Positions 23,433 to 29,526 of a stretch of 29,844 nucleotides of DNA are shown here, piece after piece. Each line of letters begins with the position of its first letter. The stretch's first letter is position 1. This stretch comes from a virus. Its lineage: Duplodnaviria > Heunggongvirae > Uroviricota > Caudoviricetes. The notes under the pieces are model-generated. The model was not told where the DNA came from, did no database searches, and saw nothing but the letters and a program-made list of their open reading frames with translations. Made by a program: the position numbers and the translations under genes. Location: the IMG/VR virus record IMGVR_UViG_2541047968_000011; one strand, given 5' to 3'.

Positions 23433-24007
23433 CAAACGATGATTACATCCGTCTGTTGTCGGCACTGTTGCCACCCGGTCCGGCGTGGTCAGCCAGAGAT
23501 CCGGCGATTGCCGGTGCGGCACCGTCATTAACCCGCGTTCATCAGCGTGCGGATGCCCTGATGCGGGAGCTGGATCCGCGCACCACCACTGAACTGATAA
23601 ATCGCTGGGAGCGTCTGTGCGGTCTGCCGGATGAATGTATTCCCGCAGGGACACAGACCCTTCGCCAGCGTCAGCAACGGCTGGATGCGAAGGTTAACCT
23701 GGCGGGCGGCATCAACGAGAATTTTTATCTTGCACAGCTTGCTGCCCTGGGCAGACCAGACGCTACCATCACGCGATACGACAAAAGCACGTTCACCTGC
23801 TCATCGGCCTGTACTGACGCGGTGAATGCGCCGGAATGGCTGTATTACTGGCAGGTCAACATGCCAGCCGCCACAAACACCACCTGGATGACATGTGGCG
23901 ATCCCTGTGATTCCGCGCTGCGTATCTGGGGTGACACCGTTGTCGAGTGTGTGCTTAACAAACTCTGCCCGTCGCATACCTACGTAATTTTTAAATATCC
24001 GGAGTAA
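23423..24007 (+). CDS. Tail protein (Mu gp48 / DUF2313, YmfQ-like)
   Basis: 194 aa directly upstream of the tail-fibre gene, as ymfQ is upstream of stfP in e14 (from memory). Confidence 0.72.
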
Positions 24008-24010
24008 TCC

Positions 24011-24643
24011 ATGCATCGTATAGACACGAAAACCGCGCAGAAGGATAAGTTCGGCGCGGGTAAGAACGGTTTTACCCGTGGTAACCCCCAGACTGGCACG
24101 CCTGCCACCGATCTGGATGATGACTACTTTGACATGTTGCAGGAAGAACTTTGTAGCGTTGTTGAGGCATCCGGTGCCAGTCTGGAGAAGGCGCGGCACG
24201 ACCAGCTGCTTACCGCGCTTCGTGCGCTGCTGTTAAGCCGCAAGAATCCGTTTGGCGATATCAAATCGGATGGCACGGTGAAAACGGCTCTCGAAAACCT
24301 TGGTTTGGGAGAAGCCAGATATGTCATTCAGCGAGGAGCTAATGTCAATGGTGCATGGATACGCTGGTCAGATGGTGCAATAGAAGTATTTGGAACTGGT
24401 GGTTCCAATGATAATGGGCTGGCTAAAGTCGTTTATCCAATTGCTCTACCTAAGCTTTCACGTTTTATCAGCATAGCGGAAAGAATAAGAACAGATTACG
24501 AGGCCACACCTAATAACGTTCACGTTTCAATGATCGTGGATGACCAGGTCAGTAATACAGGTTTTTATGTCCGCTGCCAGATGTACGACGGAAGACCATC
24601 AACAAGTGCTTTTTCCTGGAGAGTTTATTGTGCGCCTGTTTAA
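24011..24643 (+). CDS. Side tail fibre protein (constant N-terminus plus currently expressed variable C-terminus)
   Basis: N-terminus [26 protein letters not shown]... is the conserved tail-fibre N-terminal domain. A 26-bp invertase crossover site lies inside the gene at codons about 93-101. Confidence 0.8.
24288..24313. other. Invertase crossover site, left (gix/hix/pix-like), CTCTCGAAAACCTTGGTTTGGGAGAA
   Basis: Matches the hix/gix family pattern (..GAAAACC nn GGTTT..) as recalled. Its right half is repeated in inverted orientation at 26711-26737. Confidence 0.6.
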
Positions 24644-24827
24644 TCCTGTTACTTTGACTGAAGTAATCCCCGGTCTTCATGACGTGACCGGGGCTGTGGA
24701 ATTACCAGAAGATAACTGGTTTTTTACTATGACAGAAATTCCTCAGGGCATGGAGCTAACAATTAATGAGAAAGGGGAACCAATATTGATTGAGGTTAAT
24801 CAGTCTCAGGGAAAGCAGGCCAAATAA
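24630..24827 (+). CDS. Putative short tail-fibre assembly/chaperone protein (65 aa)
   Basis: GTG start with GGAG 7 nt upstream, directly after the fibre gene. It is short for a Tfa, and its 3' end overlaps the convergent tfa' fragment, so this call is uncertain. Confidence 0.35.
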
Positions 24828-25101
24828 TATCAGGCGCGGTGCTGGTATCTGTTGCCGTCACCGCGTCAATGTAATCCAGCACGGCGTTAAGCCGGGTTGT
24901 TTCTGCCTGCATCAGCTTCCGTCCGGCCTGTAATTTCAGCTGAATCAGACTGATGGAAGCCATTGCAGCATCAATCAGTGACTGACGCTGTGCTTCTGCC
25001 GTGTCTACTGCGGCGCTATGCTGTGCCTCAGTATCGGTCACCCATTTCTCACCATCCCATTTATCGTATGGTGTTAACGGGGCGATAGTTGTGGTATTTT
25101 C
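24796..25101 (-). pseudogene. Tail-fibre assembly gene tfa' (alternative orientation), C-terminal fragment separated from its 5' part by IS26
   Basis: Minus-strand translation ...ENTTTIAPLTPYDKWDGEKWVTDTEAQ...[16 protein letters not shown] matches the conserved Tfa C-terminus. The frame is open right up to the IS26 boundary. Confidence 0.75.
25094..25101. repeat. IS26 target-site duplication (left copy), GTATTTTC
   Basis: Identical 8 bp abut both ends of the IS. Confidence 0.85.
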
Positions 25102-25921
25102 GGCACTGTTGCAAAGTTAGCGATGAGGCAGCCTTTTGTCTTATTCAAAGGCCTTACATTTCAAAAACTCTGCTTACCAGGCGCATTTCGCCCAGGGGAT
25201 CACCATAATAAAATGCTGAGGCCTGGCCTTTGCGTAGTGCACGCATCACCTCAATACCTTTGATGGTGGCGTAAGCCGTCTTCATGGATTTAAATCCCAG
25301 CGTGGCGTTGATTATCCGTTTCAGTTTGCCATGATCGCATTCAATCACGTTGTTCCGGTACTTAATCTGTCGGTGTTCAACGTCAGACGGGCACCGGCCT
25401 TCGCGTTTGAGCAGAGCAAGCGCGCGACCATAGGCGGGCGCTTTATCCGTGTTGATGAATCGTGGGATCTGCCACTTCTTCACGTTGTTGAGGATTTTAC
25501 CCAGAAACCGGTATGCAGCTTTGCTGTTACGACGGGAGGAGAGATAAAAATCGACAGTGCGGCCCCGGCTGTCGACGGCCCGGTACAGATACGCCCAGCG
25601 GCCATTGACCTTCACGTAGGTTTCATCCATGTGCCACGGGCAAAGATCGGAAGGGTTACGCCAGTACCAGCGCAGCCGTTTTTCCATTTCAGGCGCATAA
25701 CGCTGAACCCAGCGGTAAATCGTGGAGTGATCGACATTCACTCCGCGTTCAGCCAGCATCTCCTGCAGCTCACGGTAACTGATGCCGTATTTGCAGTACC
25801 AGCGTACGGCCCACAGAATGATGTCACGCTGAAAATGCCGGCCTTTGAATGGGTTCATGTGCAGCTCCATCAGCAAAAGGGGATGATAAGTTTATCACCA
25901 CCGACTATTTGCAACAGTGCC
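25102..25921 (-). mobile_element. IS26 (IS6 family) insertion sequence, complete, 820 bp
   Basis: Perfect 14-bp terminal inverted repeats GGCACTGTTGCAAA at 25102-25115 and TTTGCAACAGTGCC at 25908-25921. Length is exactly 820 bp, it encodes Tnp26, and it is flanked by 8-bp direct repeats. Confidence 0.95.
25154..25858 (-). CDS. tnpA: IS26 transposase Tnp26
   Basis: 234-aa translation MNPFKGRHFQRDIILWAVRWYCKYGISYRELQEMLAERGVNVDHSTIYRWVQRYAPEMEK... is recognisable as the IS26/IS6-family transposase. Confidence 0.95.
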   Translation of the reverse strand: MNPFKGRHFQRDIILWAVRWYCKYGISYRELQEMLAERGVNVDHSTIYRWVQRYAPEMEKRLRWYWRNPSDLCPWHMDETYVKVNGRWAYLYRAVDSRGRTVDFYLSSRRNSKAAYRFLGKILNNVKKWQIPRFINTDKAPAYGRALALLKREGRCPSDVEHRQIKYRNNVIECDHGKLKRIINATLGFKSMKTAYATIKGIEVMRALRKGQASAFYYGDPLGEMRLVSRVFEM

Positions 25922-25929
25922 GTATTTTC
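25922..25929. repeat. IS26 target-site duplication (right copy), GTATTTTC
   Basis: Identical to 25094-25101. Confidence 0.85.
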
Positions 25930-26229
25930 AGGGTAATCACCCGGAGCTGTGATTTCTTTTGACTCTCCAGTTTTGGTGCTATAGACGATTTCACCGCGAT
26001 GGTCTGGCACATATTCCCATGAGTTAAAATTTGCAGAACGACAGATAGCATAACCCACCTTATATGTGCCAGGGGCATCTAAACAGGAATATGCAGGAAT
26101 ACCGACACCAATGGCAAGATATTCAGTTGAAGCTGAAATATATTCCTGCGTCTCACTATCATAGTTATAAACGGTAATATCCCCCGACTTTGTAGCAATA
26201 AGCTCACTATTTAATATTGCTTTATCCAT
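25922..26229 (-). pseudogene. Tail-fibre assembly gene tfa', N-terminal fragment interrupted by IS26
   Basis: Minus-strand ORF starting at 26229 (MDKAILNSELIATKSGDITVYNYD...HRGEIVYSTKTGESKEITAPGDYPENTALL) runs into IS26. Removing IS26 plus one duplication copy restores a continuous 201-codon Tfa-like frame. Confidence 0.75.
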
Positions 26230-26736
26230 TATGCTGCTCTCACGATATAGTTAAATGCAATGTTTCGAGGGCGATTCTCTGATGCTGTTGGTACAACCCT
26301 GGATGCATCAAAACTGAATCCTGTGTAAGGGGTATTTTTTGTTTCATATGTGCCTAGGTTATTATAGATATTTCGCGTAGCTTGAGATGCTAAGGCAAAA
26401 GCACCAGTACCAGTCTGTAACCTGAAAGTTGCTGTATCAATGGTGCCTTTAACTTCATTTATAAAGCCTGTTATATTCCGAATGGTATCTCCCTGTGACG
26501 AAAGCAAGCTACGGTTAGTATCAATCCCTCTTCCATCATCCCAGCCACGAATAAACTCACCGCGTAAATCAGGCAATTTATTTGTCGGGTAAACCTTTGC
26601 CAGTTCCGGGTATTCTTCAGCAGAAAAAGCCGCCCCGTTGCATTTCAGCCAGCCTGTTGGCGGAGTGGCGGAAGGCCACGGAACAGGCACGCCAACGGGT
26701 AATGCCGAACCTTCTCCCAAACCAACGTTTATGAAA
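26229..26736 (-). CDS. Alternative tail-fibre C-terminal segment (inverted orientation, no independent start)
   Basis: Minus-strand frame encodes ...VGLGEGSALPVGVPVPWPSATPPTGWLKCNGAAFSAEEYPELAKVYP... It begins at the right crossover site and would join the constant fibre N-terminus in frame at LGLGE/VGLGEG after inversion. Confidence 0.7.
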
Positions 26737-26737
26737 A
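26711..26737. other. Invertase crossover site, right (inverted copy); reverse complement TTTTCATAAACGTTGGTTTGGGAGAAG
   Basis: The right half GGTTTGGGAGAAG is identical to the left site in inverted orientation. It lies just upstream of the invertase gene, as in the Gin/Cin/Pin systems. Confidence 0.6.
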
Positions 26738-26791: not shown

Positions 26792-27346
26792 ATGCTTATT
26801 GGCTATGTACGTGTGTCAACAAATGACCAGAACACAGATCTACAGCGTAATGCGCTGAACTGTGCAGGATGCGAGCTGATTTTTGAAGACAAGATAAGCG
26901 GTACAAAGTCCGAAAGGCCGGGACTGAAAAAACTGCTCAGGACATTATCGGAAGGTGACACTCTGGTTGTCTGGAAGCTGGATCGGCTGGGGCGTAGTAT
27001 GCGGCATCTTGTCGTGCTGGTGGAGGAGTTGCGCGAACGAGGCATCAACTTTCGTAGTCTGACGGATTCAATTGATACCAGCACACCAATGGGACGCTTT
27101 TTCTTTCATGTGATGGGTGCCCTGGCTGAAATGGAGCGTGAACTGATTGTTGAACGAACAAAAGCTGGACTGGAAGCTGCTCGCGCACAGGGACGAATTG
27201 GTGGACGTCGCCCCAAACTTACACCAGAACAATGGGAGCAGGCCGGACGATTAATTGCAGCAGGAATTCCTCGCCAGAAGGTAGCGATCATCTATGATAT
27301 TGGTGTATCGACTTTGTATAAGAGGTTTCCAGCCAGGATTATATAA
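26792..27346 (+). CDS. pin: Serine-recombinase DNA invertase (Pin/Gin/Hin/Cin family)
   Basis: 184 aa with N-terminus MLIGYVRVSTNDQNTDLQRNAL... (catalytic Ser in the VRVST context) and a C-terminal HTH. GGAG RBS; adjacent to the invertible fibre segment. Confidence 0.92.
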   Translation: MLIGYVRVSTNDQNTDLQRNALNCAGCELIFEDKISGTKSERPGLKKLLRTLSEGDTLVVWKLDRLGRSMRHLVVLVEELRERGINFRSLTDSIDTSTPMGRFFFHVMGALAEMERELIVERTKAGLEAARAQGRIGGRRPKLTPEQWEQAGRLIAAGIPRQKVAIIYDIGVSTLYKRFPARII

Positions 27347-27542: not shown

Positions 27543-28442
27543 CTAATCATTATGGAGTATTTGATCGCCGTATGGCCAGCCATTTTCCCCAGGAAGGGTC
27601 ATACCTAACATTGGCATAATACTAAGTTGTCCAATGGTAAATCCTAGAGCACTTGTATTACTGATTCCGGCATAGGTCATATCAAGGGGGTTAGACTCTG
27701 AGCTGGACATAAAAAGATTTCTTGTGCCAATTCTATTCGCCATTGAGAACTGAATATGCCCACCAATTGTATTTACGGTGTCCTGAGATATCCAGTTGTT
27801 TAACGCGATAAATGGCGCCCGCCACCAGTTAAGCGTGCCATTCTCAAAACGCCCCCTCGTCATCTCAATATCTTCCCGAAACTGCTGCTTTCTGTCTCCC
27901 AAGACTACCGGGGTACCTGTTGTCAGGTCAAGGCAGTCCTCAATTACAAGATTAGTGGGGTTTGATGGGGTGTTGTAGATCTTAATGATTTTATGTACCT
28001 GTGTTCTGAAACAGAATCCGTAAATAATCATCTCCGTTGCTACAGAACGGGGAAAAAACTGGCCAATATCCAGTATAAATTTTTCCGCGATTCCCTTTGT
28101 TAAAACTGCAATTTCATAAAGACTCGGGTAACTATCATAAGTCAACTCCGGCTGCTGAACATCATAATAATTAACTTCATGTAATGAAGATAATGATACG
28201 GCAAGTAACTCCTTCACATTTATACCGATCATTGTTCCTCCTGCAAAGCCGAAACCAAACTCCATAATTTTTTCCGGAGATAGACGGTATATGTCATTGG
28301 AGCGAATAACTGATACCGGAATCGAGAATAGTTTAGGACAGTGATTTGTCATTACACTTTCATGCTGGGTGATTCTTGAGTCGCTTACGGCCCAGATACT
28401 TTCCCCTTCTTCCCTGTTTAGCCAGCAGGCTATTGCTGTCAT
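27543..28442 (-). CDS. Hypothetical cargo protein (299 aa from the RBS-supported ATG; the frame is open to 28580), no recognised family
   Basis: Long minus-strand ORF in AT-rich DNA. A strong SD (AAGGGGG) sits 7 nt upstream of the ATG at 28442. It lies immediately downstream of pin. Confidence 0.6.
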   Translation of the reverse strand: MTAIACWLNREEGESIWAVSDSRITQHESVMTNHCPKLFSIPVSVIRSNDIYRLSPEKIMEFGFGFAGGTMIGINVKELLAVSLSSLHEVNYYDVQQPELTYDSYPSLYEIAVLTKGIAEKFILDIGQFFPRSVATEMIIYGFCFRTQVHKIIKIYNTPSNPTNLVIEDCLDLTTGTPVVLGDRKQQFREDIEMTRGRFENGTLNWWRAPFIALNNWISQDTVNTIGGHIQFSMANRIGTRNLFMSSSESNPLDMTYAGISNTSALGFTIGQLSIMPMLGMTLPGENGWPYGDQILHND

Positions 28443-28923
28443 TGAAAACCCCCTTTTAAGTAAAAAAATCAGATTCAGATAGTGCATACATAATTTAGTC
28501 AAGTCATCTCTTTTAAGACGCATTGAGAAATGGTTGCTCAAGGTGCGCCAGTGAACGCGCACGAAAATAACTTCTTGCATTTCCCATTACACTCTGACTT
28601 TAGGGCCGCGTTAGATTTTAACATGGTGGCCGTGCATCCATTTAAATTGGTAATCTGGAGAATGAGTAACGCTGAATAGATTAACAATCTATGCGACTAA
28701 CGGCCCTTAAAAGCGCAGCTCATAACATCGAATTTTACCAGTTTAGTCATTTTTAAAAAGTGCCCGAAAAATGTTGTCCACGATTTGTGCTCTACGTCCC
28801 ATCTTGACCTACTCCCTGATAATTCACTCAGAAGGCGGTTAGCAATGTCCGTTAAGTGCTCACAACGGACATTCAGCCCACTAAATCCGACCGTGTCGCT
28901 CAATATGCGGACAGGTTGTAGTG

Positions 28924-29526
28924 CTAACTGCATTGTAGCTGTGAGATTTCACCATCGATGGCTTCTATAACCTGTTTATAGCGGAGCATGACCTCATCAT
29001 GAATCATCATTAATCCGCGGCCGTACTCTGTGGCTAGGATTGTGTATCTTTTCAGGTGTGCAAGATGTTCTTTGTTGCCAGTAATGTCACTTGCAACCTG
29101 CGTGGAGTCCAGCCGTTCGATAAGCGCATTATTGCCGCGATAGGAATCAATTAGGCTTCTTGCGCTTGTATAAAAAGCCACAATTTTTGAGAGTGTTTCT
29201 CTATGAACTTCAGGTAGGGATGCCGAGTTGGCTTCATAGAACGTGAAGTAGTTTTGAGTAATGGGGAAAATGTTATCGAACGGTGAGTTCCGGTCGTATT
29301 TTTCGATTTCTTCTGCCATTCTGGCCTGATACAGTTTAATCAGTGAGTCTATTTCCTCTCTGACACCCAATAGCGTTGTTATACGCTTCTCTCTGGCCGC
29401 TGTTGCCTGCTGTTTTGCCTGCTGTTTCACCTGAGTTGTCACTCCTATCATCGTGAAACAGCCACCTAAAAGAGCTGCTAAAAATGCGGAGATGAGATCT
29501 GAATATTCGTGCCAGAAGGTTAGCAT
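28924..29526 (-). CDS. Hypothetical membrane-anchored coiled-coil protein (200 aa)
   Basis: Minus-strand ORF with an N-terminal hydrophobic segment (LISAFLAALLGGCFTMIGV) followed by a charged helical region. AT-rich; no convincing SD, so the start is uncertain. Confidence 0.45.
   Translation of the reverse strand: MLTFWHEYSDLISAFLAALLGGCFTMIGVTTQVKQQAKQQATAAREKRITTLLGVREEIDSLIKLYQARMAEEIEKYDRNSPFDNIFPITQNYFTFYEANSASLPEVHRETLSKIVAFYTSARSLIDSYRGNNALIERLDSTQVASDITGNKEHLAHLKRYTILATEYGRGLMMIHDEVMLRYKQVIEAIDGEISQLQCS

Follow-up and report, generated by a model that had tools for sequence, protein, structure and literature searches.

The DNA analysed here, a stretch of 29,844 nucleotides that we call the window, carries an insertion sequence in the midst of its tail-fibre region, which raises the question of what exactly the element interrupts, how it came to lie there and whether the phage is any the worse for it. 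Our answer, about which we have little doubt, is that a copy of IS26-v1 inserted into codon 103 of tfaE, in one arm of a Pin-invertible segment, in an e14-like prophage of an Escherichia coli chromosome.

The inserted element

The element and the repeats that delimit it are as follows (minus, lower strand):
25102..25921, minus: IS26-v1 (the G184N transposase variant), 820 bp, transposase co-oriented with tfaE
25102..25115: terminal inverted repeat GGCACTGTTGCAAA, window-left IS end, downstream of the transposase gene
25908..25921: terminal inverted repeat TTTGCAACAGTGCC, window-right IS end, upstream of the transposase gene
25154..25858, minus: tnp26 coding sequence, intact, 234 aa plus stop, N at residue 184
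25094..25101: target-site duplication, copy 1, GTATTTTC
25922..25929: target-site duplication, copy 2, GTATTTTC

The initial annotation described an intact IS26 of exactly 820 bp with perfect 14-bp inverted repeats, flanked on both sides by an 8-bp duplication. Direct reading and a script bear out the length and the ends, which form a perfect 14-bp terminal inverted repeat; a repeat finder gives 15 bp because one flanking base pairs by chance. The duplication is likewise exact: the flanks match over precisely 8 bp (GTATTTTC), the ninth base being G on one side and C on the other, and the interval 25094-25929 singled out in that annotation comprises duplication, IS and duplication. According to the script, this 8-mer has no further occurrence on either strand of the window.

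Over its full length the 820-bp element is 100% identical to copies in at least 5,000 plasmid records, in which the matches carry the annotation 'IS6-like element IS26 family transposase'. Its product, Tnp26, is a single DDE transposase (Pfam DDE_Tnp_IS240, E = 5.3e-49). Compared with the IS26 copy of NZ_CP107720, which encodes WP_001067855.1, the window element is full length with both 14-bp ends present and differs at three nucleotides. Those at IS positions 613 and 614 are adjacent and together result in G184N, the sole amino-acid change, and the one at 459 is silent. The identity is thus 99.6% both to the WP_001067855.1-type copy and to phage-borne IS26, where the former is equated with reference IS26 by inference, the 99.6% type being annotated as IS26 in phage RCS47. 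A difference from IS26 at three nucleotides, two of them responsible for the G184N substitution in Tnp26, defines IS26-v1 (PMC9412624), and the variant is also covered in PMC12540391. Enhanced activity has been reported for the G184N transposase (Pong et al. 2019, as cited in PMC12540391 and PMC9019673). Judged by its nucleotide sequence, then, the window element is IS26-v1 and not reference IS26: the designation 'IS26' used at the outset holds as a family-level name, while IS26-v1 is the precise one. The IS15D names in ISfinder cover IS26 variants such as this three-nucleotide one.

In all its general properties, i.e. the length, the 14-bp inverted repeats, the single 234-aa DDE transposase and the 8-bp duplication, the element agrees with IS26 and IS26-v1. 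There are no differences in the element itself, and its location in the chaperone gene of a chromosomal prophage alone is unusual. The usual home of IS26 is the resistance region of a plasmid. Only six of 50,697 deposited phage records, mostly P1-like phage-plasmids, contain a full-length IS26, and all of these copies are of the reference type, 99.6% identical to the one in the window. Neither the window nor the approximately 6 kb of the source scaffold beyond its end contain further copies or fragments of IS26, so that about 36 kb of the scaffold hold one copy. A promoter scan of the IS ends revealed no hybrid outward promoter that could drive the 3' fragment of tfaE, and the number of promoter-like sites in the region is that expected from shuffled sequences. 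Elsewhere in the window, 16 nucleotides of the ymfQ-like gene (23456-23471, TTGTCGGCACTGTTGC) match the IS26 end plus its left flank at 15 of 16 positions. We considered this stretch as a possible trace of IS26 and rejected it: the same 16-mer is found in all six e14-like relatives without the IS, hence it is native ymfQ coding sequence with a chance resemblance.

The interrupted gene and its empty site

The gene that the element interrupts is represented by three features:
25922..26229, minus: tfaE 5' fragment, codons 1-102 plus two bases of codon 103
25870-26229, minus: 119-aa fusion ORF, in which the tfaE 5' fragment reads into the IS; Pfam Caudo_TAP_N
24796..25101, minus: tfaE 3' fragment, codons 101-201 plus stop; conserved C-terminal part of Caudo_TAP

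The IS lies within codon 103, and the 119-aa ORF ends with 16 foreign residues. Removal of the IS and one copy of the 8-mer in silico restores a minus-strand ORF of exactly 201 codons, with no base gained or lost. This uninterrupted Tfa-like ORF, with the sequence quoted in the initial annotation, produces a convincing match to Caudo_TAP (PF02413, residues 78-199, E = 6.6e-31, 107.6 bits against a curated cut-off of 22.1 bits). The family is also detected in the pieces, Caudo_TAP by the 3' fragment on its own and Caudo_TAP_N by the 119-aa product. The restored protein shares 199 of 201 residues with WP_000356379.1, the RefSeq tfaE product of E. coli VTB97584v, and the rejoined 200 bp around the site match at 199 of 200 positions in the tfaE gene of that strain, which is uninterrupted and contains a single GTATTTTC.

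The same holds for the broader comparison with prophages that lack the insertion, for which the first annotation had called. The target is uninterrupted in all six e14-like E. coli prophage relatives (identical over 39 bp in two of them), and the 8-mer is present as a single copy at their empty site. Like other chaperones of the Caudo_TAP family, such as Tfa of lambda, U/U' of Mu and G of P2, the restored protein covers the whole PF02413 model, and its gene is located immediately downstream of its own fibre gene. The start of tfaE overlaps the stop of the Collar-type variable fibre part at 26229, and the order is the same in E. coli ECOR29. The window gene differs from these homologs in being split between the variable N-terminal and the conserved C-terminal domains, and with the split at codon 103 no full-length Tfa product is possible. 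PMC9608196, in a summary of the work on Tfa of phage Mu and related chaperones, assigns fibre binding to the variable N-terminal domain of Tfa, and trimerisation and assembly to the conserved C-terminal one.

The host prophage and its relatives

The window contains, in this order, genes for the terminase, portal, protease, capsid, sheath, tube, tape measure and baseplate proteins (the latter of the Mu gp44-48 type), followed by a YmfQ/Gp48 protein. The whole morphogenesis module, from the terminase to the baseplate and fibre, consists of full-length ORFs with the lengths found in intact relatives (e.g. 498 aa for the sheath). Since RefSeq uses the names ymfQ, tfaE and pinE in the relatives, the window represents a full-length relative of the e14 element, and the insertion resides in an e14-like prophage of full length whose tail is of the Mu type. 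In contrast to e14 of K-12, which is a remnant, this prophage retains the complete head and contractile-tail module. The left end of the prophage, with the integrase and the repressor, is located outside the window. Related e14-like prophages exhibit varied states of decay, compared with the copy in the window, the ORFs of which are full-length across the morphogenesis module: the tail sheath gene of the relative in NZ_CP178707.1 (5853-7348) is frameshifted, and in NZ_CM137005.1 (1-2173) the fibre gene is broken, while part of a baseplate gene directly adjoins an integrase gene that is truncated.

The single contig on record with the 119-aa fusion ORF is KE702575.1 of assembly GCA_000461675.1. 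This is a 1.24-Mb chromosomal scaffold whose overlap with the window is identical to it, and the chromosomal flank beyond the prophage displays 99.7% identity to many E. coli chromosomes, which is the basis for naming E. coli as the host. The source being a draft scaffold, and IS26 a multi-copy repeat that assemblers handle badly, one may ask if a repeat copy of IS26 was simply placed into a gap of a short-read assembly. We regard such an artefact of assembly or scaffolding as very unlikely, given that the IS ends are base-exact at both junctions and that the duplication is perfect and single-copy in the relatives, whereas a scaffolding error would not duplicate the target over the length that is typical of IS26.

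Searches of 5,426 complete E. coli genomes, with a 24.8-kb query and with a 400-bp query spanning the left junction, did not find the same insertion in any of them. The sole record that covers the junction query, NZ_CP107720, was rejected as a further instance, as it contains a different prophage with IS26 elsewhere and with unmatched flanks. Taken together, the perfect IS, the perfect duplication, the undamaged halves of the gene and the unshared position indicate that the insertion in tfaE is a real, recent and strain-specific event, in agreement with the recency proposed when the element was first described.

The locus of NZ_CP107720.1 (4491-5463, E. coli 2021CK-01361) is of interest in its own right as a second, unrelated case of IS26 in a prophage fibre region. 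Here a reference-type IS26 truncates an alternative fibre exon, its 8-bp flanks mismatch (GTTTTAAC versus ATAAATGC) and there is no invertase gene after it. This points to an adjacent deletion, mediated by IS26, in which the invertase was lost.

Origin of the insertion

Movement of IS26 does not involve a discrete mobile unit. Instead, the donor and the target are joined in a cointegrate by two direct copies of the IS, and a single IS26 with the 8-bp duplication around it arises only through subsequent homologous recombination (PMC10433875). A lone copy flanked by a target duplication therefore calls for a later resolution step. On the basis of the published biology of IS26, the insertion in tfaE would have begun with the formation of a copy-in cointegrate with another IS26-bearing molecule, probably a plasmid, and this cointegrate would then have been resolved between the two IS copies to leave one IS flanked by the duplication. 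If so, a donor molecule bearing IS26-v1 must have been present at the time of insertion. The term 'simple transposition' used in the initial annotation is consequently right as to the outcome, which involves neither an adjacent deletion nor an inversion, but not as to the mechanism, which proceeds via a cointegrate (PMC10433875).

Adjacent deletions and inversions are nonetheless frequent with IS26 (PMC10433875), and the arrangement in NZ_CP107720, where the IS truncates a fibre exon, the flanks do not match and no invertase adjoins, could be taken as a precedent for a more complex history: a deletion or inversion brought about by IS26, or what is left of a plasmid or translocatable unit that had integrated, with coincidental 8-mers on the two sides. 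For the window, this scenario is in effect refuted by the fact that the empty site can be rebuilt exactly, and we consider its probability negligible. The gene is restored exactly, the neighbours on both sides are collinear with the six relatives, and the chance that two fixed flanks match at 8 of 8 positions is 4^-8, or about 1.5e-5.

The invertible segment

The insertion into tfaE placed the IS inside a segment with the following components:
24011..24643, plus: tail-fibre gene as assembled, 210 aa; constant N-terminal part to about 24301, then the ON variable part
24288..24313: left crossover site, 12-2-12, core TT at 24300-24301, inside the fibre gene
24630..24827, plus: 65-aa ORF that follows the ON fibre tip, where its assembly partner would be located
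26229..26723, minus: OFF variable fibre C-terminal part, 165 residues, Collar domain E = 3.9e-15; the cognate tip of the disrupted tfaE
26712..26737: right crossover site with an AA core (26724-26725), reading TT on the opposite strand
26792..27346, plus: Pin-type serine invertase, pinE-like, intact, 184 aa

The cores of both crossover sites are the same dinucleotide in inverted orientation. The sites overlap a 20-nt inverted repeat (I1, 95% complementary, at 24295-24314 and 26711-26730), and their 12-2-12 layout is one that we read by analogy with the hix/gix sites. Just outside the segment is the invertase gene, annotated as pinE in the relatives and encoding a protein of the same length as theirs, with significant matches to the Pfam families Resolvase (E = 1e-51) and HTH_7 (E = 1e-14). 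Inversion between the cores in silico generates an in-frame fibre of 261 aa, and 512 complete E. coli genomes contain the predicted inverted junction as contiguous sequence. In E. coli ECOR29 the same segment (1,608 bp, 97.4% identity) is found in the opposite orientation with collinear flanks, the breakpoints of the inversion fall at the crossover sites, and a 261-aa fibre protein (annotated as a phage tail protein) is followed by an intact tfaE of 201 aa. It follows that the segment does invert and that the IS sits inside it. The placement of the Tfa gene in an invertible tail-fibre segment, asserted in the initial annotation, is thus upheld by the crossover sites, by the intact invertase and by the flipped state in ECOR29. 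Because of the IS, the segment is 828 bp longer than before, 2,422 bp compared with 1,594 bp.

This organization closely resembles that of the e14 P-segment (pinE, stfE/tfaE, stfP/tfaP). The two share an invertase of the Gin/Cin/Hin/Pin group, the same order of ymfQ, the constant part of the fibre, two opposed cassettes of variable part and partner, and pinE, as well as inverted crossover sites in the fibre gene and the occurrence of both orientations in nature. They differ in that the K-12-type elements possess a gp53-like/StfP and TfaP pair, in the place of which the window has an unrecognised 210-aa fibre tip and the 65-aa ORF. In the relatives, RefSeq lists both the 210-aa fibre and the 65-aa product as 'hypothetical protein'. 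The 65-aa product (WP_059221482.1) is annotated in NZ_CP178707.1 and ECOR29, and its gene is also called in the source assembly. Neither the ON fibre tip nor the 65-aa ORF has a family match in Pfam or PADLOC. The region 24302-24827 on the plus strand therefore comprises a fibre tip of about 110 C-terminal residues and a 65-aa ORF, both without a family, and as the latter occupies the site where Tfa normally sits, the pair may represent a receptor-binding tip of an uncharacterised kind, together with an assembly partner of very small size.

Functional consequences

In the assembled orientation the broken tfaE is on the OFF side, so that the insertion leaves intact both the 210-aa fibre that is expressed and its 65-aa partner; the late operon would read these two genes, with no loss. 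After inversion it would produce the 261-aa Collar-type fibre together with a 103-residue N-terminal fragment of Tfa carrying 16 IS-encoded residues. As this fragment lacks the conserved C-terminal domain, Collar-type fibres would be predicted to fold poorly unless Tfa is supplied in trans. By analogy with the known chaperones of this family, the inverted orientation should thus give defective fibres, save where a compatible Tfa is available from another locus, and the host-range switch would presumably still flip, with only one of its two sides productive. Polar effects are not a concern, since nothing essential lies downstream in either orientation. The original proposal that one fibre orientation has lost its chaperone, with a bias or impairment of host-range switching, is accordingly supported as far as the split tfaE is concerned; a crippled phage in the flipped state is a reasonable inference, and the fibre that is expressed at present is unaffected. 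It should be added that, the source being a draft scaffold, the orientation of the segment is one snapshot or the consensus of a mixed population.

It is also conceivable, and we would not dismiss it lightly although we do not favor it, that the insertion is real and has no phenotypic effect whatsoever, either because the prophage is cryptic and non-inducible, like e14 of K-12, or because the Tfa of another prophage acts as the chaperone in trans. Elements of the e14 type are often defective, and among the relatives considered above one carries a frameshift in the sheath gene and another has been heavily truncated; for the window, this argument is countered by the morphogenesis module, all ORFs of which are full-length, with the lengths seen in intact relatives. 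Complementation could draw on an ample supply, as Tfa-like genes are widespread: matches to the Tfa region are present in 3,475 of the 5,426 E. coli genomes, at a median of two places per genome and up to 11. PMC9608196 describes the C-terminal domain of Tfa as conserved and common to families, which would facilitate such a substitution, but the N-terminal domain as the variable, fibre-specific one, and therefore an arbitrary Tfa is not necessarily a substitute.

A more far-reaching possibility, which we mention as a speculation with rather little to commend it at present, is that the e14-like prophage is inducible and packages IS26-v1, thereby acting as a vehicle of the element to new hosts, providing a landing pad and carrying one dead state of its switch. 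If this were true, a temperate myovirus would bring a hyperactive IS26 into new hosts. There, as well as in the present chromosome, the copy of IS26-v1 would constitute a landing pad for the targeted conservative integration of resistance units that bear IS26. The two-state switch would have gained a dead state, and a fraction of the progeny would be sacrificed in each burst.

Significance

Returning to the insertion into tfaE itself, every component belongs to a known family, and the event is real and well documented but ordinary; nothing here challenges the current understanding. Insertions of IS elements in prophage genes are commonplace. As a clean, fully reconstructible chromosomal insertion of IS26-v1, the locus is a useful strain marker, the practical value of which is small, and the chromosomal copy of IS26 could recruit units with resistance genes by the targeted conservative route. 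Moreover, the natural knock-out of one arm of the switch offers a way to ask if a Collar-type fibre needs its own Tfa.

The region that follows the invertase gene deserves a separate comment. Directly after it, at 27543-29526 on the minus strand, there are two ORFs of 345 and 200 aa without a Pfam family. The 345-aa ORF has no match in Pfam or PADLOC, and the 200-aa ORF displays a weak ZorB/MotB-like match at its N-terminus (E = 0.002). The same position is occupied by different cargo in the relatives, including a GIY-YIG nuclease and an HNH endonuclease, and it may be shared by the DUF262 protein, the ATP-dependent nuclease and the cytosine methyltransferase of other relatives. The region after the invertase thus looks like a variable, possibly defence-related cargo hotspot.
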